Source of the DNA: Escherichia phage vB_EcoP_PE007
Length of the DNA: 64,000 bases
Sequence record: OQ938542.1
Direction: 5' to 3' (one strand)
Part shown: one piece after another, positions 13,919 through 39,344 of the stretch
How the letters are laid out: every line of letters starts with the position of its first letter
How positions within the stretch are numbered: the first letter of the stretch is position 1
Program-made: the position numbers and the translations under genes
The notes under the pieces: generated by a model
Told to the model about the DNA's origin: nothing
Databases searched by the model: none
Seen by the model: the letters and a program-made list of their open reading frames with translations, nothing else

Positions 13919-15229
13919 ATGTTTTCCAAACCTACCAAAGCCCCACTGAACAAGGGGCAAGAAGCGGTTGCGAAGGAGTTCTTCGACTTCCTGCTCAACC
14001 CTAATGCTACCGAATTCAATATTAGTGGCCCTGGGGGAACTGGCAAGACATTCCTGATGTCGCACCTCATTGATGACACTATGCCTGCATATATGGAAAC
14101 TTGCTCCCTTATGGGAACCAAGCCCCTGTATAACGAAGTTGTTATGACTGCGACCACGAACAAGGCTGCTGAAGTTCTGGCTCAGGCTACTGGACGTCCA
14201 ACATCTACCTATCATTCCTTCCAGGGACTGATTGTTAAGAATGACTTTAAGACCGGTGAGGCTAATGTCGTACCGTCTAAATCATTCAATATTAAGAAGA
14301 ACAAAATCATCTTCGTAGATGAAGCATCCATGATTGACCGTCAGTTACTTAAATATGCTCGTGAAGGTACTCACCAGTGCAAACTGGTATTCGTAGGCGA
14401 TGCTTCTCAGCTTCTGCCTGTTAAAGAGAATAAGTCTCCCGTGTATGCAGGTAATATCCCAACACACTATCTGACTGAACAGATGCGTACCGATGCACCG
14501 GAACTAAAAGCATTGCACCAGCAATTGCGTGATACGGTAGAAGGTAAGACAGGTTTCCTGCCTATTAAGTGTATTCCAGGCATTATTGACTGGGTACAGG
14601 GAGAAGAGATGGAGAAACTGGTTCTCAGTCACTTCACTCAACCCACCAACAGCCGTATTGTTGCTTACACAAATGACCAGGTTATTAATTACAATAACTA
14701 CATTCGTGAAGCCAATGGTTACGTGGGTGAGTACTCCATCGGTGAACAGTTAGTTTCTAACTCTGCTGTTCGCTTAGGTGTGGAAGACCGTCTGTCTATC
14801 GAGCAAGACGTAAAACTCATCGACCAGGATAGCAGTACTCGCATGATTCAGGTTACAGGTGACCTGGAACTGGAAGTCCGTGATAGTACTCTGGACCTTG
14901 GCTATGGTGGTATTGTAAGTGAAGTCCCAGTACCTACCGACCCAGAATACTTCAACCGTTTGGTTAAGTGGCTAGGTAAGGAGAAGAACTGGGAACCTTA
15001 CTTCCGTCTTAAAGAAACCATTCCAGACCTACGTGCTACTCATGCATGTACTGTCCATAAATCACAAGGCTCTACTTACGACACAATCTTCATTGATGCA
15101 GATGACCTCTCAAGCTGTCGCCAACCGGATATGGTTGCTCGTCTGCTTTACGTCGCTGTGTCTCGTGCCCGTAAGCGAGTAGTGTTTTATGGCAATCTTG
15201 CCAGTAAGTATGGTGGTCTAACTTTCTAA
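13919..15229 (+). CDS. Dda/RecD-like SF1 DNA helicase
   Basis: Walker A GPGGTGKT, Walker B FVDEASM, motif TVHKSQGSTYD. Confidence 0.85.
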   Translation: MFSKPTKAPLNKGQEAVAKEFFDFLLNPNATEFNISGPGGTGKTFLMSHLIDDTMPAYMETCSLMGTKPLYNEVVMTATTNKAAEVLAQATGRPTSTYHSFQGLIVKNDFKTGEANVVPSKSFNIKKNKIIFVDEASMIDRQLLKYAREGTHQCKLVFVGDASQLLPVKENKSPVYAGNIPTHYLTEQMRTDAPELKALHQQLRDTVEGKTGFLPIKCIPGIIDWVQGEEMEKLVLSHFTQPTNSRIVAYTNDQVINYNNYIREANGYVGEYSIGEQLVSNSAVRLGVEDRLSIEQDVKLIDQDSSTRMIQVTGDLELEVRDSTLDLGYGGIVSEVPVPTDPEYFNRLVKWLGKEKNWEPYFRLKETIPDLRATHACTVHKSQGSTYDTIFIDADDLSSCRQPDMVARLLYVAVSRARKRVVFYGNLASKYGGLTF

Positions 15230-15239
15230 GGGAGGATAT

Positions 15240-15770
15240 ATGCCTCAGATTGGTTCAGCGACTATTGGTCAGGTTGCCAATAGCAGTGAGATAGTCAAAC
15301 ACCTGTTCTTAGCAGAACTGGTTCGTCTTGATAATGTGTTAAACGGTATCATTGATAAGAACGACCGTATCAATGGTATTGATGTATCGGCTGGATTCCT
15401 TTATCAAGGGGAGTTCTATCAGCGTTCTAATGCTTCCAGACCTCCGACCTACGGTGAGCGATTAACGCTTAATCCAGAACTTTGGCCTGCAATGGACAAG
15501 TATCTGAAAGCCTCCAGTCGTCTGATTATGGAAGTACACCTAGTGAACCAGACTGTTTATCGCCTGGTTCGTGGTTGTATGTCTTATCAGGATGTACGTG
15601 ATGCTTTGCCTGAATGCCTGGTAGCCCAGGACCAGACTGGTAAGTACAAGGAACTACCACGTACTCGTGAAGCAGCCTGGACACTTGCTGGTGATCCTAT
15701 GGCAATAAAACAGTATGAGAAGATTCTTCCCTCTATTGAGTACTATGCAGCTTCTCATCTGATTTTCTAG
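15240..15770 (+). CDS. hypothetical protein
   Basis: ATG with gggagga RBS. Confidence 0.5.
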   Translation: MPQIGSATIGQVANSSEIVKHLFLAELVRLDNVLNGIIDKNDRINGIDVSAGFLYQGEFYQRSNASRPPTYGERLTLNPELWPAMDKYLKASSRLIMEVHLVNQTVYRLVRGCMSYQDVRDALPECLVAQDQTGKYKELPRTREAAWTLAGDPMAIKQYEKILPSIEYYAASHLIF

Positions 15771-15779
15771 GGTAAAGCT

Positions 15780-18359
15780 ATGCGTTACATCACCTCTCAA
15801 GATACGGGTAAGTATCCTATTGCTATCCTCGGTCATCAAATCCGAAGGGAGGAGATGATTAAAACCTACCTGCTGCCTAATGACCTAAGCATGGAAGATT
15901 TTATCTTCATTGAACTTCATTCTGCCCCTGGCAAGAAGAAGACTCCTGCAAGGGAAATTAAAGAGTTCATACAGCAGGAACTGCAACAGGTACTGGATGA
16001 TGCAGAAACTCAATACATTATCTGTACCGATTCTGATTACTTCAAAATACTGACTAAAGAAGCTAAAGCAGAGGCTAATCTCGGCTATGTTTGTGATTCA
16101 GTATGGGGTAAGCAGAAGGTTATCTATGCACCTAGCTACAGGCAGGTCTTTTACGATCCTCCTGTAGTGAAAGCCAAGATTGCTCAGGGTATGGATGCAT
16201 TACTTAACCACATACGTGGACAGTATGCTGAACCAGGACAAGGAATTATTGAATTTGAAGCCTATCCAGATACTCCAGAGAAGATTAAAGCCTGGCTAGA
16301 CCAGTTGCTTGAGATGAATAAGCCACTGGCTATAGACATCGAAGCATTCGGTTTAAAGCACTATAACGCCGGTATAGGGACAATTACATTCTGTTGGAGT
16401 AAGACACAAGGCATAGCCTTTAATGTGGACTACGAGCCAATTCCTGGGGCTACTGAAGCACCTTACGGGCGTATCAACAGAAATGGTGTTGTTCGAAATC
16501 TTCTGCGTGAGTTCTTCATTAAGTACACTCAACGGCAGATGTATCACAACATTAGCTATGACGTGTATGTGCTTATCTATCAGTTATTCATGGATAACCT
16601 GATTGATACAGAAGGCTTACTGCATGGCATGGAAATCATGCTACGTAACTGGGATTGCACTAAGTTAATCACCTACTTAGCTACTAACAGTTGTGCAGGT
16701 AATCACCTTAGTCTGAAAGACCAGGCTCAGGAATATGCTGGTAACTATGCTCAGGATGACATTAAAGACATTCGTCTTATTCCTAATGAGCAATTGTTAC
16801 GCTACAACCTCATTGATGGTTTGTGTACGTGGTACACCTACGAGAAGCACTGGGATACTCTTATTGCTGATGACCAACTGGATGTTTACAACAACATCTT
16901 TAAGCCAGCCTGTGAAGATATTATTCAGATGCAGTTAACCGGTATGCCCATAAATATGGAAACCGTTAACCAGGTAGCTAAGGAGATGGAAACTGACAGG
17001 AACCAGGCTCTGAAAACTATTCGTGAGTCCAAGCTCATGAAGAATTTCACCATGATGCTTCGTCAGGAATGGGTAGATGATAAGAATGCTAAGCTCAAGA
17101 AGAAACAAGTAACACTTGCTGATTGTGACATCGAGTTTAACCCTAACTCAGGTCCACAATTACAGAAGCTGTTATTTGATTATATTGGCTTACCGGTACT
17201 TGGTCTTACTAAGAGCAAGCAACCTGCTACTGATGGTGACACCATTAAAGCACTGCGTACGCATACGCAGAGTGAAGATGTTAAGGAACTGCTCAATGCA
17301 CTTATCGACTATAAGCTCGTGGATAAGATTATCACTTCATTCATCCCGGATTTCCGTAATGCACAACCTGGGCCAGATGGATGGCACTACCTATTCGGCA
17401 ACCTCAATCTGGGGGGAACGGTTTCTGGTAGATTATCTGCCTCTGAGCCAAACCTGCAAACCATTCCGTCTGGTTCCAAATACGCCAAGAAGATTAAGAA
17501 ATGCTTCGAAGCACCACCGGGTTGGATCTTTTGTGGACTGGACTTTGCAAGCCTTGAAGACCGTATCTCAGCTTTAACTACCAAAGACCCTCAGAAGCTT
17601 AAGGTATATACCGATGGCTATGATGGTCATAGTCTCCGTGCATATGCTTACTTCGGTGAGCAGATGCCAGACATAGAAGACACAGTAGAATCTATTAACT
17701 CCATTCAGCATAAGTACAAATCATTGCGTAGTGACTCGAAGGCTCCAACCTTCTTGCTTACCTATGGTGGTACGTATATGGGCTTAATGAAAAACTGTGG
17801 CTTCTCAGAAGAAAAGGCTAAGACTACAGAGAAACGTTATCACGACCTCTATGTAGTTAGCGATATGTGGGTTCAGGCTAAACTAGACGAAGCTGCCAAA
17901 ACTGGTTATGTTACTGCCGCATTCGGTTTGAGAGTGCGTACTCCTTTACTGGCTCAAGTATTACGTGGGACATGTAAGACTCCGTATGAAGCAGAAGCAG
18001 AAGGCAGAACTGCTGGTAATGCTTTAGGGCAAAGCTGGTGTCTACTGAATAACCGTGCTGGTTCAGAATTTATGCGTAAAGTCAGAGCCAGTGAGTTCAG
18101 GTTAGATATTCGTCCTAGTATTCATATTCATGATGCTCAGTACTTCATGATTCGTGACAACATGGATACCTTGCAATTCACGAACAAGCACTTGGTTGAA
18201 GCCGTTAACTGGCAAGACCATCCTGATATTGCTCATCCAGAAGTTGGTTTGGGTGGGGAACTATCCTTGTTTTACCCAACGTGGGCTAACGAGATTGAAA
18301 TTCCAAATCACGCTACCCCAGAAGAAGTTCATCAAATAATTCAAAAGGCATTCGCATGA
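15780..18359 (+). CDS. family A DNA polymerase with 3'-5' exonuclease domain
   Basis: Exo I LAIDIEAFG; motif A DFASLEDR; motif B RSDSKAPTFLLTYGG; motif C IHIHDAQ. Confidence 0.9.
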   Translation: MRYITSQDTGKYPIAILGHQIRREEMIKTYLLPNDLSMEDFIFIELHSAPGKKKTPAREIKEFIQQELQQVLDDAETQYIICTDSDYFKILTKEAKAEANLGYVCDSVWGKQKVIYAPSYRQVFYDPPVVKAKIAQGMDALLNHIRGQYAEPGQGIIEFEAYPDTPEKIKAWLDQLLEMNKPLAIDIEAFGLKHYNAGIGTITFCWSKTQGIAFNVDYEPIPGATEAPYGRINRNGVVRNLLREFFIKYTQRQMYHNISYDVYVLIYQLFMDNLIDTEGLLHGMEIMLRNWDCTKLITYLATNSCAGNHLSLKDQAQEYAGNYAQDDIKDIRLIPNEQLLRYNLIDGLCTWYTYEKHWDTLIADDQLDVYNNIFKPACEDIIQMQLTGMPINMETVNQVAKEMETDRNQALKTIRESKLMKNFTMMLRQEWVDDKNAKLKKKQVTLADCDIEFNPNSGPQLQKLLFDYIGLPVLGLTKSKQPATDGDTIKALRTHTQSEDVKELLNALIDYKLVDKIITSFIPDFRNAQPGPDGWHYLFGNLNLGGTVSGRLSASEPNLQTIPSGSKYAKKIKKCFEAPPGWIFCGLDFASLEDRISALTTKDPQKLKVYTDGYDGHSLRAYAYFGEQMPDIEDTVESINSIQHKYKSLRSDSKAPTFLLTYGGTYMGLMKNCGFSEEKAKTTEKRYHDLYVVSDMWVQAKLDEAAKTGYVTAAFGLRVRTPLLAQVLRGTCKTPYEAEAEGRTAGNALGQSWCLLNNRAGSEFMRKVRASEFRLDIRPSIHIHDAQYFMIRDNMDTLQFTNKHLVEAVNWQDHPDIAHPEVGLGGELSLFYPTWANEIEIPNHATPEEVHQIIQKAFA

Positions 18360-18661
18360 CAAAAAGTACTAAAGAAACCGTAGTCAGAAAATATCATTGG
18401 ATGGTAGCAGCACAGGTAGTCTTCCAGCTTCCTAAAGTGGATGATGGTTCCCTGCTTACCATGAACACAATGTTGCTCACTGATGAACCTTATGTGACCT
18501 ATAAAGATTTGGCTCGTGCCAATCATTCCCTGAAGATTAGTCTGGACCAGCGTTTCGACACTTCGGTTGACTTGAAGGACATTGTTTACCTGTCTCTTAG
18601 CAATCTGGGTCTGATGTCTGAACCAGAGTTCCAGGCAAACATGATTCCTAAGGAGAAATAA
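18356..18661 (+). CDS. hypothetical protein
   Basis: ATG overlapping polymerase stop. Confidence 0.45.
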   Translation: MTKSTKETVVRKYHWMVAAQVVFQLPKVDDGSLLTMNTMLLTDEPYVTYKDLARANHSLKISLDQRFDTSVDLKDIVYLSLSNLGLMSEPEFQANMIPKEK

Positions 18662-19137
18662 TGGCTAAGCTCTCCGGTGGATTGAATAACTGGTATGTAG
18701 TACCAGTTAAGAACCCTCAACGGAAAGAGCAAGAGCCATATCAAGCAGAGTGTGAGGATATTATCCAAGCACTGGGCATGACCTTCGATGAGGGTTGTGC
18801 CTTTAAAGCTCTGTGGCGAAATGCTGCTGCCCGTATGGGTAATGGTAAACCTGGAAACACTGCTGTTTACGATGCAGAGAAGCTGGTTCATTATGCTAAT
18901 CGTATTCTTGCTAAGGAGAAGTTAGCTAGTGAGTTATTTCCGGATCCTGCTACGAATGTAAATACCGTTGGTAGTTATTGGCACCATACAAACAATGGTA
19001 AACCTCACTTCACTAAAGAATTTTCATTCATTGAGATTGTTTATAAAGATGAACGAGATGAAATTTACTCGTATAACTTCAATCAGCTAAGTGAAATTAA
19101 GTGGAACTGGGTTCACAGATACAGGATTACTTACTAA
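18661..19137 (+). CDS. hypothetical protein
   Basis: ATG with aggag RBS. Confidence 0.45.
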   Translation: MAKLSGGLNNWYVVPVKNPQRKEQEPYQAECEDIIQALGMTFDEGCAFKALWRNAAARMGNGKPGNTAVYDAEKLVHYANRILAKEKLASELFPDPATNVNTVGSYWHHTNNGKPHFTKEFSFIEIVYKDERDEIYSYNFNQLSEIKWNWVHRYRITY

Positions 19138-20117
19138 TGAAGATAACCAACAACCATGATGTATCACTGGCCCTGGCTGTATGGCTATTACATGATGAGT
19201 ATGATTACGTAGACAATCCTAAGTATCTGTCTGTTACCACATTGCTTAAGCCCATTAAGCAAATCGTCATGAAGCATCGTGTAGATTTAAGTGACCAGTC
19301 AATTGATGTTATGGATTTCGTCTCTACATCAATGGGTACCGGTTTACATGATTCTATCGAGAAAGCCTGGAAGCTAGGTCATAAGACTGCATTGAAGAAG
19401 TTGGGTTATCCTCAACGAGTAATTGATGCAGTAGTCATTAACCCAACCAAAGCAGACTTTGATGCTAACCCTGACCTTATCCCAATCTACATTGAACAAC
19501 GTGGAACCAGGGTAGTTAAGGGTTGGACTATCGGTGGTAAGTTCGACATCGTAACAGAAGGTCTGTTGCAGGACTTTAAGTCTACCTCAACCTATTCCTG
19601 GGTTGCTGGTTCCCGTGATGATGAACACAAGATGCAAGGCAGCTTGTACCGTTGGATTCACAACGACATCATTACTGAGGATGTAATTCGCATTAACTAC
19701 ATCTTCACTGACTTCATGAAACACATGGCTAATAGCAATCCGAACTATCCTGCTAATCGTATTATGCATAAGGACATTCCGTTGCTATCTGTCGAGAAGA
19801 CTGAACGTTGGGTAGAAGAAAAGATTCACCTCATTGAGAAGTACTGGAATGCACCTGAAGAGGAAATTCCTGAATGTACTGACGAGGAGTTGTGGCGAAC
19901 AGAGCCACAGTTCAAGTACTTCTCTGATGCTTCTAAGGTAGATGTACCTGGAGCCAGAAGTACCAAAAACTTTGACGATATGGCATCTGCTCGTATCTTC
20001 ATGGCTGAAAAAGGTGGCAAAGGTGCTATCAAGGTCGTGGAGGGGCAGGTTAAGCGTTGTCTGTACTGCCCTGTCGCGTCCATTTGCAAACAAAGAGAGA
20101 GATATTTTCCATCATGA
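19138..20117 (+). CDS. PD-(D/E)xK Cas4/RecB-like nuclease
   Basis: GKFDIV ... QDFK nuclease-core pattern and C-terminal CLYCPVASIC (Cx2Cx5C); ATG 19138 abuts the upstream stop. Confidence 0.5.
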
Positions 20118-22267
20118 GTATTGACCTGACCGGAGTCACTCACCACCCTGCAATTGAAGAAATTGTAGATGTGCTGTGTAACAAGACACAAAACAACGAC
20201 AGAGGATTCTTCCGTGTCGAAGTAGCCTACTTCCTGGCTAAAATGGCATCCTGTATGGGTGCAACCATTGTCACTAAAGACCGTGGTGACTTACCAGTCA
20301 ACATTTACGCTATGGCATTAGCAACGTCTGGCTTCGGTAAAGGTCACTCGGTAAATATTATTGAAGACGGATTCATGACTGGCTTCCGTAAACGCTTTAT
20401 GGAAGACACCATGCCCGTCATTGCAAATGACCGTCTATGGAAGATTGCTAACGAACGTGCTGCTCGACAAGGTACAGACCAGAATGATGAGTTTGATAAA
20501 GTTGAAGCAGAATATAAACGTGCTGGAGCATATCCGTTTACGTTTGACTCTGGTACTCCACCAGCAGTTAAACAACTACGTCATAAACTGTTAATGGCTG
20601 GGTGTGGTTCAATCAACCTTCAGATTGATGAAATTGGTTCTAACCTGCTGGCTAACACAGATGTATTAACTCTGTTCCTGGAACTGTATGACCAGGGTAA
20701 GGTTAAGCAGAAGTTAACCAAGAATACTGCTGAAAGTGTTCGTGGTGAAGAACTGGATGGTAAGACTCCAGCTAACCTGTTGCTGTTTGGTACACCCAGT
20801 AAGCTACTGGATGGTGGTCAGACCGAAGATCAGTTCTATGACTTCCTTGATACAGGGTATGCACGTCGTTGTCTGTTTGCCATTGGGCATTTAGACAAAC
20901 GAGCACATGCAACGCTAACTCCAGAGGAAATCTACCGTAACCTGATTAAGCAGGATAACGTACAGTCCCTTGGTAAGTGGGCTAATCACTTCCATAGTCT
21001 GGCTGACCCAAACCTGTTTGGTTTTAAGATGGTTGTGGAAGATGCTGTGGGTATTGCTCTGATTACTTACAAGATTGATTGCGAGAAACAAGCAGAAGCT
21101 ATGGCTGACCACGAAGAAATTCGTAAAGCTGAAATTTCCCACCGTTACTTCAAAGCTCTTAAGCTGGCTGGAGCACTGGCGTTTGTTGACCAGAGTTCAT
21201 TCATTGAAATGTCTCACCTTAAACAAGCAATCCTGCTCGTAGAGGAATCTGGGGCAGCATTCCAGGGTATTCTCAATCGTGAGAAAGCTTATGTGAAGCT
21301 GGCTAAGTATATCGCTTCTGTAGGTAAAGAAGTGACTCATGCTGACTTACTGGAGTCATTGCCGTTCTATAAGAGTGGCAATGCAGCTCGTAATGAGATG
21401 ATGACTCTTGCTACAGCATGGGGCTACAAACAGCACATCATCATTAAGAAAACCTTCAATGAAGGTATTGAGTTCTTCCGTGGGGAAACTCTGAAAGAGA
21501 CTGACATCAATGAGATGATAGTGGCATATAGTGATAGCTTTGCTTATGACTACATTGGTGAACGTGTACCGTTCGACCAGTTGCATGTATTAACTCAAGC
21601 TCCCGGTATGCACTGGGTAAACCATCACATGAAGAATGGACATCGTTCCGAAGAGAACGTTATTCCAGGATTTAACATGATTGTTATTGACTGTGATGGT
21701 GGAGTACCACTGCATACGTGCCATGAACTGATGAAGGAATATAAGTTCATGACCTATACCACTAAGCGTCATTCTGATGAAGAGAACCGCTTCCGGCTGA
21801 TTATTCCAATGAACTATGAGTTACACCTCGATACTGAGGAGTACAAAGAGTTCATGAATAACGTTATGTCTTGGCTACCGTTCGAAACGGATGAATCTGC
21901 TAACCAACGAGCCAAGAAGTGGATGTCCTGCGAGACTGGTTCCTATCATTACAATCTTGAAGCAAATCTGTTGGACGTGCGTGACTTTATTCCTCGTACT
22001 AGTAAGAACGAGCAGTTCCAGAACCAGATGAAGGAAGTACAGTCGTTGGATAATCTGGAGCGTTGGTTCGCTAGTCGTATTGCTACCGGTAATCGTAATA
22101 ATCAAATGATTAAGTACGCACTGGCATTGGTTGACAGTGGTTGGGATTTTGCCCAAGTACAGCAAGCCGTCCACTCATTCAATAAGAAACTGGCTAATCC
22201 ATTACCAGATGATGAATTGAATGCAACCGTAATGGTCACCGTGGCTAAACGCTTCGCTGGCAAATAA
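20114..22267 (+). CDS. putative DNA primase (prim-pol-like C-terminal region)
   Basis: ATG 20114 (ATGA overlap); IVIDCDGG Asp motif; N-terminal P-loop-like GFGKGHS and QIDEIG; sits in the replication module. Confidence 0.45.
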   Translation: MSIDLTGVTHHPAIEEIVDVLCNKTQNNDRGFFRVEVAYFLAKMASCMGATIVTKDRGDLPVNIYAMALATSGFGKGHSVNIIEDGFMTGFRKRFMEDTMPVIANDRLWKIANERAARQGTDQNDEFDKVEAEYKRAGAYPFTFDSGTPPAVKQLRHKLLMAGCGSINLQIDEIGSNLLANTDVLTLFLELYDQGKVKQKLTKNTAESVRGEELDGKTPANLLLFGTPSKLLDGGQTEDQFYDFLDTGYARRCLFAIGHLDKRAHATLTPEEIYRNLIKQDNVQSLGKWANHFHSLADPNLFGFKMVVEDAVGIALITYKIDCEKQAEAMADHEEIRKAEISHRYFKALKLAGALAFVDQSSFIEMSHLKQAILLVEESGAAFQGILNREKAYVKLAKYIASVGKEVTHADLLESLPFYKSGNAARNEMMTLATAWGYKQHIIIKKTFNEGIEFFRGETLKETDINEMIVAYSDSFAYDYIGERVPFDQLHVLTQAPGMHWVNHHMKNGHRSEENVIPGFNMIVIDCDGGVPLHTCHELMKEYKFMTYTTKRHSDEENRFRLIIPMNYELHLDTEEYKEFMNNVMSWLPFETDESANQRAKKWMSCETGSYHYNLEANLLDVRDFIPRTSKNEQFQNQMKEVQSLDNLERWFASRIATGNRNNQMIKYALALVDSGWDFAQVQQAVHSFNKKLANPLPDDELNATVMVTVAKRFAGK

Positions 22268-26779: not shown

Positions 26780-26853
26780 GCCCACTTAGCTTAGACGGGG
26801 AAAGCAACCGACTAATAATCGGAAGGTCACTGGTTCAAATCCAGTAGTGGGTA
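26780..26853 (+). tRNA. tRNA (hand-folded anticodon AAU; identity uncertain)
   Basis: Acceptor gcccact/agtgggt (7 bp, one GU), D-arm gctt/aagc, anticodon arm accga-ctaataa-tcgga, 5-nt variable loop, T-arm actgg-TTCAAAT-ccagt, discriminator A; 74 nt. Confidence 0.65.
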
Positions 26854-27080
26854 CTTATTAATAGAGAACATAGTCCTGATTGCATTGCACTCTAAAGACA
26901 ATGCCGGTGAGACAGTCCGGCACTCTAATTATTGAAAACATACCTAACGGTGTGAGTATGAGCAGACTATAATGCTCAATTACAGTTAACTATTATCGGA
27001 CTATCAATCCTGTTTGCTGGTACAAGCACCGGTGGTAATAGTTAACTGGCCTAGCCTCGTTAGCTGCGTTAAAGCTACTA

Positions 27081-28519: not shown

Positions 28520-31500
28520 TTAGTTAGTAAGATTGAGCCACGGGTTCAGGGTATGAGCACGTAAGCCTTGACCGAAACCGAAGGAGTAACCAAGATTGCC
28601 CTGTGCAGCAATACTAAAGATGTTGTCCTGAATAGGCAGACCAACGTTACCAAACATGGTAGGGGTTGGAGCCAACATAGCTATAGCAGCATGCACCGGG
28701 TTATTACGAATCATGGACACTGCAACTTTTGCAGAACGAATCTTAAAGTTATAGAACCACATTAAACCAACACTTTCCATATACCCACGGAAGCGACCCG
28801 GTAGACGGTCATAGTTAATAAACTCTTCCGTTACACGTCCTAGTGCTTCTTCACGGGTCTTACCTTTACGCTGAGTCAGTTCATCATAAATGATTGCTTT
28901 AGCGATAAAGTCAGAGTACTCAACCGTCTTCTGGATACCCTGGAACAGAGCAGTATCCTTAGTGATAAGTGCATAACGACCTGCGTTACGTACAGACTTA
29001 GGCAGCTTATCAGCCAGCTTATCCATGTATTCGTGAAGTTTGCCTTCAGTAATAAGGATATCATCACGACCAATACCAGCATCTGCAATTGAGGAGAACT
29101 CACCAGCTTCCAGCAGAGGCCAGATACTCAAACGTTTATGGCTATCAGAGATGGACTGAATCTCAGCCTTAAGTTTACGAATCTGGTTCGGGTTAGTAGC
29201 TGCACGTAATTCTGCTTCTGCATCTACCTGACGCAGACGAGATTTCAGGTACTGGTTAATCTCAGCAGTCTTCTGTGGAATGCTCTTAGCAATGTTCTTA
29301 ACCGGTACACCACGAGCAATCATCTGATAAAGGTTAGCCAGGAAGTTAACAGCAGGTACGACTACTGACTTAACCACAATCAGAGTCTTAGCTTCTTTAA
29401 CTAAGTTCTGAACCAGGTTCTCACCACCCATTACATACTTATAGGCACGGTTGCCAAAGACACCCAGCATAGCTTTCTTGAAGGTATCCAGTGTTTCTGG
29501 TGACCAACGGGAATTACCAGACCAGGCATCACCTACAGAAGCTGCACGATAACCCAGAGCATCGTTGAGCATGTCACGACGTACCCATAATTCACCCGGA
29601 CCAAACAAACTTTCTGCTTTCTGACGGGTTTCACTGTTCATCAGCTTAAGTGCATCGGCAGTTACTGGGTCCAGTTTAGAACCAAGAAGGTTAACGTACT
29701 GGGACTTATTAGAAGCAGACATCTTAATGTCGTTCTCATACATGCTATGCAGGTTCTCAATCAGCATATCATTGAAACGCTGAGCCTTAGCTTCTTCCAC
29801 CTGACGACCACGCCATACACCGATTGCACGAGCAAGATGGTTCTCACCTTCAATGTGCTTCAGCATATTAGGGTCAATGGATTGCTCATAAGCAACCACA
29901 TTACCATTGGCATCATATACAGGCAGCAGTGGTTCATTACCACGTTCACCACGAGCCAGTGCTTTAGTGATACGGTCTACGGAAGGCTTGTCAGTGATAC
30001 GACCAGCTACCATGGTTCCCATAGTAAAGCCCGTACCGAGATCTACACCACCAGCAGTATTACGAACGTTCTGTAAGATACCTTGCGAGAAAGGAGCCTG
30101 TGCCTGTACTGGTGCAAAGTAGTAGCTACGTGCTGGTCCACGATTAGCAGAGCTACCCTGATAAGTACCAAGACGTACATAGGATTTCTCAATCAAATCA
30201 GCAAACTGACTATCTTCAGCAACAATCAGGTTAACACCCTGTTTGTTCTCAGTTGGGATGTATCCTTTGTACTGATTCAGGGTTGCACGAGTATCAGACT
30301 TAGCTTTAGCCATTTCATCTTTACGCTGACCAACCAGGTAAGAAGTAGCAAAGTCCATGCCTTCAATTTCTGTCTGAGCCAGTGAAGATAACATCTCACG
30401 GTCAGTCTTATTCATTGCTTCCAGTGCATACAAAGTAATCAGTTTATCCAACTGAGCTACATCTACAACAGAACGTGTAGTCTTACGTTCACCCAGTAAA
30501 CGAGAAATTGCAGTAGCATTACGTAGCAGGTTGTTACCAACCGTACCATTAATCATGTATTGAGCCAGTTGCTTAGATTTACGATTAATCAGAGGCCAGT
30601 TACGTCCTGCTTGTTTCTGTAAATCTGCTTCCAGTTTATTAACCTCACGGTCAACAATCTTCTGGTCAGTCAGCAGGTCACGGATTTCAGCCAGAGACAT
30701 AGTGTCGCGAAGAACAGCTAAGTCAGTTTTACCCATACCAGTATGCATTGCTTTCCACTCATCGTTAGTCAGCTTACGGCTGAACTTAGATGCGATAGTA
30801 GTAGGCAAATGCTCACGGAACTGCTGACGGTCAGCCTGTACCTGTGCACGTACTGCTTTAATCAAATCATATACAGAAGCATTGCTCTTAGTACGACCAG
30901 TTAAGTCATTAACCAGGTCATGGAAAGGTTGCCATACTTTACCCTGGTTCATTGCAGCCATAACACCTTCAGCTACGATTGCACCATTCTTCTCTGTAGC
31001 AATAGCAGCTATCAATTGTGCAGCATGAGCAGCACCTTTAACCAGTGGGTTCTTGGTATTAGCTGCAACTTCACGAGCACCTTCCAAAGCACGGGTAGAC
31101 AGTACATCAATAGAGTCCACCAGATACTGGTTAGCACGGTCAATAGCATTACCGGTAGGAGTAGCAACGGAATCATAGAAGGACTCTGCATTAAGACTGG
31201 TCTGCATAATTGTCTGAGCCAGTGCATCCATACCTTCCTGTACGTTAGTGGCTTTAGTATCACCTGCTACACGAGCATTCAGGCTAGCCATTGCAGCAGT
31301 ACCGATGTTAGTCAGCATTGCATCAACGGTATTGCCTGATTTCTTATCTGCTTTCATAACAGGAATATCAGCCAGTACCTTACGTACCTCTTCGCTTACC
31401 ATTGCCAGACCAACAAAGGTAGGCAGTAAGGAAGAACGACCTTGTGCATCAAATTCAATGTTGTTAGCACCCATGATGGTATCGAACTTCTGCTGTGCAT

Positions 31501-34500
31501 AGTAACGGTCAGCAGGGTTAGTACTATCCGGGTCAGCCATGAATGATTCGACGGTCAGATTCTTAGTAACATGCGTGTAGTATTCCTGTGCACGAGCCAT
31601 AGCAGCAGGGTTAATAGCAGCCTCGGTAGCCAGTGCAGCAACAATGTTAGTAAAGAGACGCTGTTCCTGCATATTCATGGTGAAGCCATGTGCCTGAACA
31701 TCACGAGTTACTTTAGTTGCATTTACTACTGCATCAGAGAACTTACCTTTACGAATTACTTGCTGTACTGGTTCTGAACCAATGTAGTTAGTAATCAGCT
31801 TATCGAAGGTTTTCCCTAGCTCTTCCAGACGAGTATTGTCACCGTATGCTTTGTTATGGAACAAGGTAGTATCTTTAGCTACAGCAGTAGTAGGGGCCTG
31901 CCCACGCATTACTACAGCAGAGTTAAACAGTAAGCCAGAGAACATATCATCTGCATTAGCAGGAGCTTTCTTACGTCCGAATACCAGACGTTTGATTGCT
32001 TCATATACAGCCTGAACCATAGTTTTAAGTGCAGTGGTTTTCTTCTGCTTACTTATAAGTTCACGGTTGGTTAAACCCCAAGCCATGTACTCATTCAGTG
32101 CAGCAGCTTTAGCCATCGCTGGTTCAATAAAGCCATTAGACAAGTGACCATTAATGGTATTCAGTGCATTAGCATATGCTTCACGTACTGCCGGAGATTC
32201 ATCCTTAACATCCAGAGCACGGAACTGATTCATCAGGTCTTCAATATTCTGTACTGCTTCATTAGGAGTACCTTCATAGTGAGCCAGTACAGATTCAAAA
32301 GTAGAAGCATGTACTAATTCATGAACCAGAGTCTCTAAGGAAGGAGTAACTAAGTAGATGGTTTTATCTTCAAAGTTAGTCCAGCCATATGCATTACCAG
32401 CCTCAGCAGCTTCAATATCTTCTGGTGCTGGGCGAGTAATATTCTTCTCAATAGCGTAGGCATCCAGTTGAGAAGGCGTACCGTAAACAACCTTATAGTC
32501 TTTAGCAGCAAGAGATTTCTGTATTTCTTTCAGTACTGCTTGTTGTTCAGGGGACATCTCTTTAGCCAGTTTAGTAATGGCAGCATTAGACAGCAGACGT
32601 ACACCAGACTTCAGTACACGACCGACCTGTTCCATTGCTGGCACTTCTTTCACTGGTTCTGCTTTAGCAGCACGTACTGCATCACGACGCTTGTTTAATT
32701 CAGCATCAAACAGTTCGTTCAGCTTAGCTACTTGCTGGTCTACAGTCAGACCTTCCAGAGAGATTTTACCGTTGTTCACATAAGGAGCACCAACAGCAGC
32801 CATCTGGTCAACAGTGACTTGTACCTGGTCCATTACCTTGTGGCGAATATCTACACCCAGAGCAATATTACGCAGATTACGTTCAATCTGTTCAGCACCA
32901 ACACGTAACAGGTCATCAGTAGCACCCTCACGTTGGTCGTATTCCAGTGCAGATTTAGCGATAGCTTGTTTGGTTTCATCAGACAGTTTGCTGAAGTCTA
33001 CGTTCTTCATGAACTTAGCAAAGGAGTCATAAACATTCTTGATAGGGTTACCCTGCCAGGAAGTATATACAGCCTCATTAGCTTTACGGCTTGCATCAGT
33101 AATGTCATTAATACCAATGTTCATACCATCAAAGATTTTCAGGGTATTCTTCGGAGCACCTTTCATAGTAGAAAGGGTCTGCATCATCATGCCATCACCT
33201 GTACCGATGGTCATAAATGGAATACCTGCTACACCTGCCTGTGAAGGAGCATAGATGATCATTGGCACACGCATACGGTCATCTAAGTTGGTAGCCAATA
33301 CTTGGTTAGCAACATCAGTATTCTCACTACCAGCAATGTAGAAAGTCTGTGAACCAGTCTCAATCATTGGAGCCAGTGGAGACAATGAAGCCTGGATTTC
33401 ATTCAGTTCTTTCTGTGTTAAGAAATCACCTTTCTTCCATGTTGGGTCTTTTTCTTTTTCTGCCAGCTTAGCCTGTACAGCTTGTTGGAACATATCCTGC
33501 AATACCAGAGATTGAATCTGAGTAGCCTTCTGTAAGTTCTCAGTAGAATACATCAGACCCTCACCAACAGTATTTCGGATACCAGTACGCATTGGTTCAA
33601 CGAACAGATGAAGCATGTTCTCTTGTAAGTTCTTCAGAGCATTACCGGATACAGTAAACTTCTGAGGGTCTAACTTACCAGTCAGAGCACCATCTACCTG
33701 CTGAATAGACAACTCACCTTTACGCATAACCGGAACATTACCAGTTAGTGCTTCCATAGAAGTAAGGAAAGTATCCAGCATAGCCTGAGCATCAGCCTCA
33801 GACGCAGCCTCCTTACCAAACATAGCCATAGCTGGGGAAATGCTAGGGTCAGCAGCACGGGCTTGTAGAACGTCACTGAAGCGTTCGTAGATGGTATCAG
33901 TAATTGCACTAACCATCTTGCCAGCAATACCACGAGCACCAGAACCATAGATGGTAATGGTCAGTGGGTTTTTAGCGATACCACGTTTCAGGTCCAGAGT
34001 ACCATCTTCATTAAGATTGAAGTCTTTAATGAACAGGTCCATTAACTTCTGAAGATGCTTCATCTGGTTCGTAACAGGAACGTTGTTACGGTAAGTATTG
34101 CGTAATTCATTCAGTGCCTGTTGCAGACTATTAGTAGATGCTTCATACAGGTCAACACTGTCATCATGCGAATGATGCTCGTTCATAGTCTTGCCAGCTT
34201 TACCGAAGAACAAGCCACCCTTAGCAGTATTCTTAATCCAGTCTGAAGTGAACTTACCACCAGTCATTAATACCATTGCGTTGATTGGTCCGTTGGTTAC
34301 ACCATCGGCTTCAACGTACAGTGGGGTATTAAAGTTAGCACGGTCATCACTGTTAAGGTAACGGGCATATTCCATAAGAGCCATGAGAGCTACGAATGAT
34401 TTATCATTCCCCAAGGAAGTCTTCAGAATATCCACTGCATTAGCAGGTAAGTGACCAGACTTATCAAACTCAACCATCATATCAACAGCAGGTTTCAGTT

Positions 34501-37500
34501 TACCTTCCAGAGCTTTAGTCAGCTCATCTGACATAACTTCACGGGACATTTTATGAACTTTAATGCCTAATGCCTGAGCCAGTCCAAGCTGGAAGTCAGA
34601 GAACGTTTGACTGTTTTCATTACTTAAGTCGATGGTAGAGAAGGTTGGAAGGATTGCTTCACGAACCAGCTTACTGGATTGTGGGTTGTTCTTACCAAGC
34701 ATCTGCATACGACCTACACGGGTCATGTTGTAGCCGTAGTGAATAGGTGTATCCAGTCCATTCTCCTGTTCCTTAATTTGATTGATTACACCAAACAAAG
34801 AATCATATGCCATGGACACGGACAGGTTCTTACCTTCCAGTGATTTAGCAGTATTCACATTAAGCAACTCTGGGGTAAGAGCACCAGCACCCATTAATTC
34901 CAGAATGTTGTCACGACCCAATGCTTCATAGAAGTTAACCATAGGCATATGTACACGAAACTCAGTAGCTTGTTCTGCTTTGAGAGCAGCTTTCTGTTCC
35001 GGGGTATTATTAACAGCAGGGTTACGTAACTGAGTTTGAGCCACGGAAGGAATGTCATCACCCAGATACAATTTCTCTACTGGTTCTAAAAGGACAGTTT
35101 CCTCAATAGCAGTAGGGAATTTATTAATGGCATCGTTATCATCCAGCTTCTCAATGGTATACAGACCAACAGTCTTATTAGATTCTGGGTCAATCTCAGA
35201 CACATCTAACATGGACTCTTTAACTTCACCCATCTCAATAAGGGAAGACAGAATCTCTGTAGCCATTGCCATTGGGATACCCTTGGTATACCCCAAAGGT
35301 GCATTAGGATTACGATTCAAACCCCAATAGGATTCAATCTTTTGAGCTAGTGAGTTAGTAGCTTCAACCAGGGTCTGAGCATTCTCGAAGTCAGCCAGAA
35401 TACCTTCTGGTAGCAGAGATGCTTCCACACCAGTAATAGCAGCTACGTCTTTCATGTCTTTAACAGCAGCATTCTGTGTAGCAGTCAATCGCCATTGCAG
35501 ACCAGCAAGTACAGCAGTTTCTAATAGCTGGTCATTGAACTTAAAGGTGTCACCATCTTTCTCTACGATGTTAAGTAACTTACCACCTACCCAACGGTTA
35601 GCCTCAGTACCTTCCGCAAAACGTTTACCAACGTTCTTGTTAGCAAGGAACTTAGCCAGACGGTCAGACAGAGTAGTCTTCAGAGTTTCACCAAACTCAA
35701 ATAAGTCCTGGTAACGCTTAATCACATCACTTGTGAGAGCGTTATTTTCTTTTTGAGTAAATGCTTCAAAGCGAGCAGCAGAAGACAGTGCTTTCTTAAC
35801 ATCAGTCAAAGGAGACTCAGAGCCAATGGTACGAGACTTAGGTTCTTCTGGAAGACTAAATGCTTTAAGGAACTGGTTCGGTGTCTTGTCATTGTTGTAG
35901 ACAGGGAACACTGTTTCCATTTGAGATAAAGGTTTACCACCAACGGTATAGTCTGCTTTCAACTGAGCCAGTGATACTTCTTCCTTCTCTACATTATTGG
36001 TATTACGCCCAGACGTATCTACACCAATCTGAATCAGTGCATTGTTTGCTTCTACGAATGATTGAACAGTATTGAATTGTTCAGGAGTCAGCTTCTGATT
36101 ATCAAACAGTTGTAATGATACAAATGGTTGCTCACTTCCTTTGTAGAAAGTGGAGCGTACAGCACCAGTATCCAGAGACATATCACGGTAACCATCATGA
36201 CCAAATACATCAGACAGACTGATATGGTCACCATTGGAACCAACAACAGTACCATCATCAAAGAGCCAAGGACTCTCCTTACGGTCACCATACTTATTAA
36301 GAGTATCCTGTGAAATAGTATTCTCTTTCACATAAGAATCTCTTTCAGATTCAGTAGGCTGTTCAACGGTATCCTGTTTTTCAGATTGGTTCTCAGGTTC
36401 TTTTACAGTCTGTGGTTTAGACTCTTTAATAGTAGGTTCTGTTTTAACAGCTTCACTAACAGAGGGTTTAGTCTGTACAGTAGGGGTAACTGGTTCCTGT
36501 TTTGTAACAGGAGTTTCATCAACCTGATTCACTGGTTCATTGGTCTGTTGGGATTGAGCAGCATCAAGATTGCCCTGACGGAACTCTTTAACTACCTGGG
36601 CGGCAGGCTTGTCCAAACGTGAATCCAATGGGGTAACTTTCACATGAGAAACATTAAGCTCCGGGTAAGCCGTAGCAAGTGCGTTAGCAATATCAGCTAC
36701 GGTCTTGGCTTCCAGTCCTACTTGCTGGGCAAACTTAACAGACTTGGTATCATACGGATTGACACCGAGGCCAGTACGACTACGTACCCATTCACGCGAG
36801 GGAGTAAGAGCCTGATAATGGACAGACTTATTCTTATCCGCATTCCCAGAAATCAAATGCTCATTCAACGCTCCGACCTTATTCTGCATGTGCTGGGCGA
36901 ACTTCATAAAATCGCTCAGATAAGCGGAGGCCAAATCGAAGTTACCAGAGTTATACGCAGAACGAATGCGTTTCGCATGTTGCAACGCAGAGTACTGTCC
37001 TTCATTAGAACGAGACTCATCGGTTTTAATCTGTTTACTAACAATATCTTGAGGACGTAAGCCTAGTTCTTCTGCTTTAGCGTCGAACTCTCGTGCACCC
37101 TGTAATAAGGCAGCAGCAGATTGCAGGGCAGCACGTTGACGATTCCCCAGTGTAATCTTACCTTCACTTGCATGTTTCAGAACCATGTTCACTGAATCTG
37201 CATCCAGCACTTCTGGAGATACATCAGCAGCCATAGCAATGTTGTTTGCTTGGGCTTGGTTAGCTTCTTCAGTAGCTTTCAGTTTACCTGCTTCAGCCTG
37301 TTCCTGAATCATGGAATGGATGGCACGGAATGCACGAAGTACCTTCGGTGTATTCTGAACGTTAGCCATCAGGCCGGAGAATTGGTCTACGATTGCAGCA
37401 GCAGGGGAACCTTGTTCCAGATTAGCCAAAGCACCCGGGTCACGGTTAATGAAGCTATCCATAGACATGATATTGTCATACATCTGGATTGCAGCTTCCA

Positions 37501-39274: not shown

Positions 39275-39344
39275 AGCATGTTTCCTGTTCAAACTTATAT
39301 CGTATATAGGTAACTTACTCTACAGTAAGCCAGTTAAAGAAAAA

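Follow-up and report, generated by a model that had tools for sequence, protein, structure and literature searches.

Gene content and organization of the locus

The window, i.e., the whole 64,000-nucleotide stretch of DNA that was analyzed, derives from a G7C/N4-like podophage (Gamaleyavirus, Schitoviridae). Around the gene considered here, its DNA is 96% identical to that of Escherichia phage ECBP1, and 90-96% identical to that of other G7C-like N4-family podophages. The gene itself, an exonuclease gene orthologous to N4 gp42, is one long open reading frame on the plus strand running from ATG to TGA (19137..20117; 981 nt, encoding 326 amino acids followed by TGA, 37.5 kDa). Its ATG overlaps the stop codon of the gene upstream (TAATG), a GGA lies approximately 11 nt to the 5' side, and the N-terminal residues MKITN are kept down to a homolog with only 29% identity, which fixes the start at 19137. 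An earlier note, made from the letters of this DNA, had placed the gene at 19138-20117; the end is correct, but the start was set one base late, and the resulting 980-nt interval is translated out of frame. At the 3' end, the TGA overlaps the ATG of the primase gene (ATGA). No sigma-70 promoter or terminator was detected above shuffled expectation inside the gene, and neither signal was found between it and the primase gene. Three antisense (minus-strand) open reading frames had no PHROG match, and an Rfam scan revealed no RNA in the exonuclease gene, its sole match being a tRNA elsewhere.

The surrounding genes, all on the plus strand, were assigned by a PHROG scan and by synteny. Upstream, a Dda-like helicase (13919-15229), an unknown gene (15240-15770), and a family-A DNA polymerase (15780-18359) are syntenic with N4 gp37-gp39, the helicase and the polymerase each having a PHROG match; these are followed by two small unknown genes resembling gp40 and gp41 (18356..19137; phrog_5974 and phrog_9919), which are linked to the exonuclease gene through overlapping stop and start codons. 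Overlaps of this kind join each gene to the next all the way from polymerase to primase. [quoted passage not shown] The order of these four genes is that of N4 gp43-gp46, and also that of Escherichia phage nithesis; indeed, the whole order from helicase to resolvase is that of N4 gp37-gp46. With the polymerase upstream, the primase downstream, and this synteny with N4, the gene is located in the replication module, as the earlier note had proposed, and its slot between the gp41-like gene and the primase is conserved in the N4-type module. The Sak4-like annealase gene is 2.2 kb to the 3' side of the exonuclease gene. No cas genes were found beside the latter, its neighbors being phage replication and recombination genes.

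A tblastn search returned 471 phage records carrying the gene, almost all of them N4-like genomes of 70-78 kb from phages of Vibrio, Pseudomonas, Escherichia, Klebsiella, Erwinia, Achromobacter, roseobacters, and others. In some of these relatives an HNH homing endonuclease gene is located near the locus; none is present in the window.

Family assignment and nuclease motifs

Public records already contain both this gene and its label. The window protein matches PHROG 2139, "exonuclease", over residues 1-325 (E 5e-152), is 100% identical in amino acid sequence to the annotated exonuclease of phage nithesis, and is 71% identical over its full length to N4 gp42. The latter carries the label "exonuclease" in RefSeq, which may have homology as its only basis. 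Compared with N4 gp42 and the other Schitoviridae members of PHROG 2139, the window protein is an ortholog with the same gene order, motifs, and cysteines, and we found no material difference. The family is also large: when 1.84 billion cluster representatives were searched with a profile, the E<=1e-3 level was reached by 4,082 relatives and the E<=1e-30 level by 490. The clade comprising N4 gp42 and Leptospira phage LE4 gp62 has neither a Pfam family of its own nor a solved structure.

Conservation was assessed in 266 homologs: 146 N4-type cluster representatives, with 32-53% identity to the window protein, and 120 proteins of an LE4-type subgroup (named for LE4 gp62), which are shorter and approximately 25-30% identical to it. 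Among the 146 representatives, only about 29 positions are at least 95% conserved, and these include the catalytic residues and all four cysteines (discussed later); the same residues are 99-100% conserved in both subgroups, apart from the individual exceptions given with each motif. Motif I, G67-x3-H71-x3-E75 (19335..19361; this and all features below are on the plus strand), lies in a long helix spanning residues 58-88, with G67 and H71 invariant and E75 97% conserved. It is followed by E120 (19494..19496), a predicted acidic active-site residue that is invariant, and by the PD-(D/E)XK core, F136-D137-I-V ... Q145-D146-F-K148 (19542..19580), found in the window protein as "GGKFDIV" and "LQDFKST". 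The earlier note had singled out this core, and D137, D146, and K148 are indeed present and are invariant in all 266 homologs. RecB-family motif IV, Q167-x3-Y171 (19635..19649), completes the set: Q167 is invariant (266/266), as is Y171 among the 146 N4-type representatives, and 117 of the 120 LE4-type proteins have Y171. The RecB-family catalytic residues H71, E120, D137, D146, K148, Q167, and Y171 are thus all invariant or nearly so in the 266 homologs. Because this catalytic set is intact and invariant, the protein is predicted from its sequence to be an active RecB-family PD-(D/E)XK nuclease.

Assignment to a named domain family was less straightforward. A Pfam scan of the window protein returned PF12705 (PDDEXK_1) alone, at 17.5 bits against a cut-off of 22 (residues 108-318), with only the C-terminal two thirds of the protein aligning to the model; N4 gp42 likewise scores 20.3 bits against the gathering cut-off of 22 bits. 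Within a set of 104 diverse family members, 39 matched PF12705 at E<=0.01 (best E value, 3.7e-7), and many LE4-type relatives carry a precomputed PF12705 tag. Judged by these scores, the gp42 family is peripheral to PF12705. None of the 104 members matched PF01930 (Cas4), YqaJ, DUF2800, or DUF3799 (PF12684), and an NCBIfam scan of the window protein gave no match. Searches of PDB chains by sequence, with the single protein and with two family profiles, returned nothing usable.

PF12705, the only Pfam family touched, is exemplified by Stenotrophomonas phage AXL3 gp40, which is also a phage replication-module nuclease. When a broader gp42-family profile was aligned by hhalign with AXL3 gp40 and 120 of its homologs, five nuclease motifs fell in register, motif I being placed on the RGxxxHxxxE of AXL3 gp40, but this alignment is non-significant (E 0.013, probability 3%). 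In other profile-profile runs against the AXL3 gp40 family, the match either lacked significance or slipped out of register onto a decoy "TDW.K" motif.

Predicted fold and relation to Cas4

The window protein as modeled by AlphaFold2 (pLDDT 88.7, pTM 0.77) and a member of the LE4-type subgroup, modeled independently with AlphaFold2 (pLDDT 95.6, pTM 0.88), had the same best match in the PDB, the Cas4 protein SSO0001 (4IC1), with E values of 2.7e-7 and 1.6e-7, respectively, and TM-scores, normalized to the target, of 0.59-0.63 for the two models. For the window model, the next matches were RecE (1.6e-4) and then human EXO5 (5.6e-4); the nuclease domains from RecB and AdnAB, DUF3799, and MGME1 fell between 1e-3 and 1e-2. 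For the subgroup model, SSO0001 was followed by EXO5, AddB, RecE (1.2e-4), ACE1, Cas4 in Cas1-Cas2 complexes, and lambda exonuclease. Among viral models (BFVD), an N4-like ortholog ranked first (1.3e-39); after it came uncharacterized PD-(D/E)XK nucleases from uncultured phages, and Cas4-like proteins encoded by archaeal viruses. The models therefore place the predicted fold in the Cas4/AddB/EXO5 branch of the RecB-family nucleases, and it is through such comparison of predicted folds only that the family is tied to solved structures.

The phage recombination exonucleases of the lambda exonuclease, RecE, and YqaJ type share the PD-(D/E)XK superfamily with gp42. Their task would also be the one proposed for gp42, namely, to resect DNA 5'-3' for an annealase partner, from a gene adjoining the annealase gene; RecE and lambda exonuclease are 5'-3' exonucleases. 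They lack a cysteine cluster, however, whereas the gp42 family has one. Further, RecE is a moderate fold match, and lambda exonuclease is matched at approximately 1e-2 by the window model and at 2e-3 by the subgroup model; both rank below Cas4 in the fold searches, and the LE4-type model places EXO5 and AddB ahead of them too. With these positions in the ranking, and no YqaJ match in Pfam, we did not obtain the picture that the earlier note had named as fatal to its reading, namely, top matches to lambda-exonuclease/YqaJ-type proteins without the cysteines. A weak fold match was obtained with the DUF3799 protein EUBREC_2131 (3L0A; 2.2e-3 for the window model, 9.2e-4 for the subgroup model), a phage-related, RecE-like nuclease that also has four cysteines; the gp42 family, as noted above, does not match PF12684. 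In the crystal structure of 3L0A, the four cysteines bind zinc, in an arrangement that is reported to be the one seen in AddB and Cas4 (PMC3466216).

Resemblance to Cas4 raises the question of a CRISPR-related function. The earlier note had mentioned that Cas4 homologs have been implicated in interference with CRISPR adaptation, and Campylobacter phages provide a published precedent, their Cas4-like proteins being described as candidates for a part in that process. A phage-borne Cas4 that manipulates adaptation in the host would account for Cas4 being the top structural match, and for the match of the window protein to phrog_1706, "CRISPR/Cas system associated" (E 1.9e-10). The sequence models for Cas4 proper, however, argue otherwise: none of the PADLOC Cas4 models matched the window protein at E<=1, whereas four of them matched the control, AXL3 gp40, which is a canonical Cas4-like protein from a phage, and PF01930 matched none of the 104 diverse members. 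The gene also keeps one replication-module slot across N4-like phages of Vibrio, Pseudomonas, Escherichia, relatives of Roseobacter, and others. To our knowledge, moreover, the type I-E and I-F systems of E. coli do not use Cas4. Finally, the pfam12705 branch of Cas4-like proteins does not include CRISPR-associated clades (PMC5704561). We thus regard manipulation of CRISPR adaptation as very improbable, and the suggestion of interference found nothing in its support, with neither a Cas4 sequence signature nor cas neighbors. Differing from Cas4 proper in the absence of both a significant match to its sequence models and a CRISPR context, the window protein is Cas4-like in fold only.

The conserved cysteines and the insert

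The window protein has exactly four cysteines, C247, C308, C311, and C317. The last three form the triad C308-x2-C311-x5-C317 ("CLYCPVASIC"; 20058..20087), which bears out the C-terminal Cx2Cx5C reported in the earlier note and is 99-100% conserved. Of the 146 N4-type representatives, 145 have these cysteines spaced 2/5; LE4-type proteins have them spaced 3/5 or 4/5. As CX2CX5C arose in only 51 of 200,000 shuffles of the protein, the triad is not a chance feature, and its conservation agrees with this conclusion. The remaining cysteine lies in the segment P245-E-C247-T-D-E-E-L-W253 (19869..19895), where conservation reaches 100% for C247, in the one subgroup as in the other, and 99% for W253. 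C247 is positioned at the end of a helix (residues 219-236), 76 residues past the QxxxY of motif IV and 60 residues ahead of the triad. Only four alignment columns contain a conserved cysteine, and they do so in both subgroups; exactly four cysteines are present in 61 of the 146 representatives.

This arrangement was compared with that of the known four-cysteine nucleases. In Cas4, Csa1, AddB, and SIRV2 gp19, one cysteine is found near the N-terminus and three near the C-terminus, and these four hold an Fe-S cluster by which the ends of the nuclease domain are "stapled" together (PMC3466216). SSO0001 and AddB, the closest characterized relatives, have this four-cysteine Fe-S staple and are 5'-3' exonucleases (PMC3466216). 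The window protein, which is approximately 120 residues longer than SSO0001, has in common with Cas4 SSO0001, AddB, EXO5, and Dna2 the RecB-type motifs, four conserved cysteines, and a C-terminal CxxCx5C. Unlike the iron-staple nucleases, though, the gp42 family does not have one cysteine N-terminal of the core and three C-terminal of it: the N-terminal cysteine is missing, C247 follows the nuclease core, and a 60-residue insert precedes the triad. The canonical N-terminal cysteine, which the earlier note had listed as the fourth to be sought, is thus absent, and it is C247, downstream of the core, that is invariant instead. Any cysteine at all occurs in the first 60 residues of only 13 of the 146 representatives, and never in a conserved column. 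The description of the protein as having a Cas4/RecB-family arrangement must, as a result, be divided: the RecB-family nuclease, the Cas4-like fold, and the cysteine cluster stand, while membership in Cas4 and the canonical cysteine layout do not.

Where the canonical cysteine might have been is suggested by an N-terminal motif, S32-x-T34...K38-P39 (19230..19253), which contains no cysteine and in which S32 and T34 are at least 97% conserved. AXL3 gp40 does have the canonical SxS..CP cysteine at its N-terminus (YWSFSLYNTHKQCP; also given as "SFSLYNTHKQCP"), and the window protein does not. Based on inspection and on the non-significant hhalign alignment, the S32-K38 segment may be equivalent to the SxSx..CP region of Cas4 and AddB, with the gp42-family segment "S-x-T-x-L-L-K-P" at the region of their first cysteine. 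The canonical position would then correspond to K38 or to I43, both of which are compatible with the profile alignment; position 38 is K, R, Q, or S in the gp42 family.

Between C247 and C308, residues 248-307 (19878..20057) are looped out as a 60-residue insert with a strand-strand-helix-strand layout, which is predicted by AlphaFold2 to consist of strands 258-262 and 277-279, helix 282-291, and strand 297-301. The model from the LE4-type subgroup has the same insert layout. A match of LE4 gp62 (E 0.22) had suggested that the insert might be a DUF2188-like domain, and this assignment was rejected because eight excised inserts gave no consistent match in Pfam.

Residue covariation was examined by mean-field direct-coupling analysis of 387 sequences (Meff 232), in which the top couplings are indel artefacts. 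In this artefact-dominated analysis of 51,360 pairs, the couplings of residues 240 and 241 with residue 321 ranked 137 and 220, and coupling between the insert helix (287-290) and residues 323-324 was among the 40 strongest. No coupling joined the N-terminal segment to the triad region among the same 51,360 pairs, the best rank being 1,608. These couplings hint, weakly, that C247 may be situated next to the triad. By analogy with the nucleases described above, the four cysteines most likely hold a structural metal cluster, which would be expected to be of the [4Fe-4S] type, with zinc possible. We infer that C247 acts as the fourth ligand of this putative cluster, which would clamp the base of the insert.

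Gene neighborhoods and a proposed role in recombination

The neighborhoods of more distant homologs bear directly on function. In Leptospira phage LE4, the gp42-family homolog adjoins a gene for a RecT-like annealase, and in three unrelated metagenomic phages, an ERF annealase gene is located 0.4-1.7 kb to the 3' side of the homolog, with a RusA gene adjacent on the 5' side. The gp42-type nuclease is thereby found with annealases of three non-homologous families, Sak4, RecT, and ERF, as well as with junction resolvases, and it is most simply explained as the resection partner of a two-component recombinase. The earlier note's view that such nucleases act in recombination fits this gene context, and the three annealase families as companions point to a protein that performs the resection step of phage recombination, and not to a CRISPR-related Cas4.

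Two other functions were weighed against these neighborhoods. One is that of a replication exonuclease, which would remove primers or flaps and process Okazaki fragments, replacing a domain that is missing from the phage family-A polymerase. N4 replication requires the 5'-3' exonuclease of host Pol I, which would already cover such a need. Conversely, the N4-type polymerase does lack a 5'-3' exonuclease domain (PMC2784036). The position of the gene, between those of the polymerase and the primase, with its stop codon overlapping the primase start and no promoter or terminator intervening, would also suit this role, as would the action of its structural neighbor EXO5 on single-stranded DNA in replication and repair. 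However, beside the homologs that accompany RecT or ERF annealases and RusA, no polymerase gene was seen within 6 kb. This association with annealases in phages without a nearby polymerase gene favors resection as the central function. One enzyme could fill both roles, but we consider primer removal an unlikely account of the protein.

The other function is degradation of host DNA, either for nucleotide scavenging or for host shut-off, which might be expected of a conserved, predicted active DNase that is expressed with the replication genes. The constant neighbors, though, are annealases, SSB, and junction resolvases, and not genes of nucleotide metabolism; an exonuclease of this class would need free ends, and we know of no degradation of the host chromosome in N4 infection. 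We give this explanation the least credence of those considered.

We propose, with good confidence in the explanation as a whole, that the window protein is an N4 gp42-type 5'-3' resection exonuclease belonging to a phage exonuclease/annealase recombination system. It would be a Mg2+-dependent RecB-family PD-(D/E)XK nuclease with a Cas4-like fold, in which a metal cluster on C247, C308, C311, and C317 would clamp the base of the 60-residue insert onto the C-terminal helices. Acting at double-strand ends or nicks of phage DNA, the enzyme would degrade the 5'-ended strand and leave 3' single-stranded tails, which SSB and the Sak4-like annealase would pair with homologous DNA; the RuvC-like resolvase would cut the resulting junctions, and the outcome would feed recombination-dependent replication and concatemer formation. 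Both the 5'-3' polarity and the partnership with the annealase are what we infer from the comparisons above. Previous work offers several points of contact with this scheme. Sak4 is a single-strand annealing protein whose cognate SSB stimulates it, and N4-like phages have been noted to carry it (PMC5928155). The N4 SSB is described as required for recombination (Choi et al. 1995), and N4-infected cells are described as the source of a purified phage-coded 5'-3' exonuclease, which may or may not be gp42 (Guinta et al. 1986, JBC 261:10736).

Implications for the N4 gp42 family

Apart from its relocated fourth cysteine, this is an ordinary, known gene whose family is already a PHROG. We did not find gp42 described as a cysteine-cluster or Fe-S protein in the literature searched, and a 2023 structural review of recombineering exonucleases and annealases makes no mention of Fe-S or Cas4. 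The present analysis sharpens the label "exonuclease" to that of a RecB-family nuclease with a Cas4 fold and four cysteines, found in the company of three families of annealases. Whether the N4 gp42/LE4 gp62 clade constitutes a distinct class of metal-cluster recombination exonuclease, in which the staple cysteine of the N-terminus is gone, C247 serves as fourth ligand, and an accessory mini-domain is clamped by the cluster, is to our minds an evenly balanced question. If it does, the classical N4 exonuclease would be an unrecognized Fe-S enzyme, and an Fe-S-dependent exonuclease partner for Sak4, RecT, and ERF annealases would join the recombineering toolbox. The cysteine layout departs from the textbook iron staple throughout a very large phage clade lacking both a structure and a dedicated Pfam family, raising the question of whether a new way to mount an Fe-S cluster on a PD-(D/E)XK nuclease may be found in as well studied a model phage as N4.

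Sequence variation among exonuclease homologues

The cysteine triad of the window exonuclease, spaced Cx2Cx5C, differs from that of the LE4-type subgroup (the shorter, distant relatives typified by gp62 of Leptospira phage LE4), in which the spacing is Cx3Cx5C or Cx4Cx5C (L003:5001-5906; P0391-P0510). In 74% of the members of this subgroup, a fifth cysteine occupies the column of window residue N187. Many distant homologues (P0121-P0270, e.g., P0187, P0152, and P0250) continue beyond the triad in an extra C-terminal tail with the consensus ...G.L.., which could be a partner-binding peptide; unlike these family members, the window exonuclease lacks such a tail. In addition to an LE4-type homologue, the metagenomic phage contig L005 encodes a small protein (L005:11414-11635) matching the Pfam family 'Sequestin' (PF21825), a few kb downstream of its ERF gene.

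Genomic context of the exonuclease gene

Just upstream of the exonuclease gene lies the gp41-like gene (window 18661-19137, + strand). The matches to residues 1 to ~88 of its product lie at the C-termini of larger phage proteins, among them phrog_7063, '3'-phosphatase, 5'-polynucleotide kinase' (E = 2.9e-19), where positions 229-306 of the 316 in the profile are aligned. A polynucleotide kinase is also annotated at or near the exonuclease gene in the relatives phi G17, PMBT57, and UE-S5b. The ~88-residue match represents a shared domain.

Several close relatives (those compared were ECBP1, EC1-UPM, Bp4, PW8, and PBM-3) carry an HNH homing endonuclease gene within the polymerase-exonuclease-primase stretch, and in the carriers a 3001-nt query (window 18000-21000) spans ~3567 nt in two pieces. 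This gene is missing from the corresponding stretch of the window, as it is from those of nithesis, an Escherichia phage with an identical exonuclease, and St11Ph5.

A region of small ORFs separates the replication module from the virion RNA polymerase gene; in it, ARAGORN identified a tRNA-Ile gene (window 26780-26854, + strand) with the unusual anticodon AAT; Rfam confirmed the tRNA (64.8 bits). The N4-type virion RNA polymerase gene itself, a giant ORF of 3590 aa on the - strand (window 28520-39292), is consistent with the genome assignment of the window.

Possible occurrence in phage particles

In the N4-like roseophage vB_DshP-R7L, the gp42-like protein (gp60) and the SSB were listed among the proteins identified when particles were analysed by SDS-PAGE (PMC11934525); their presence there could reflect either packaging or carry-over.
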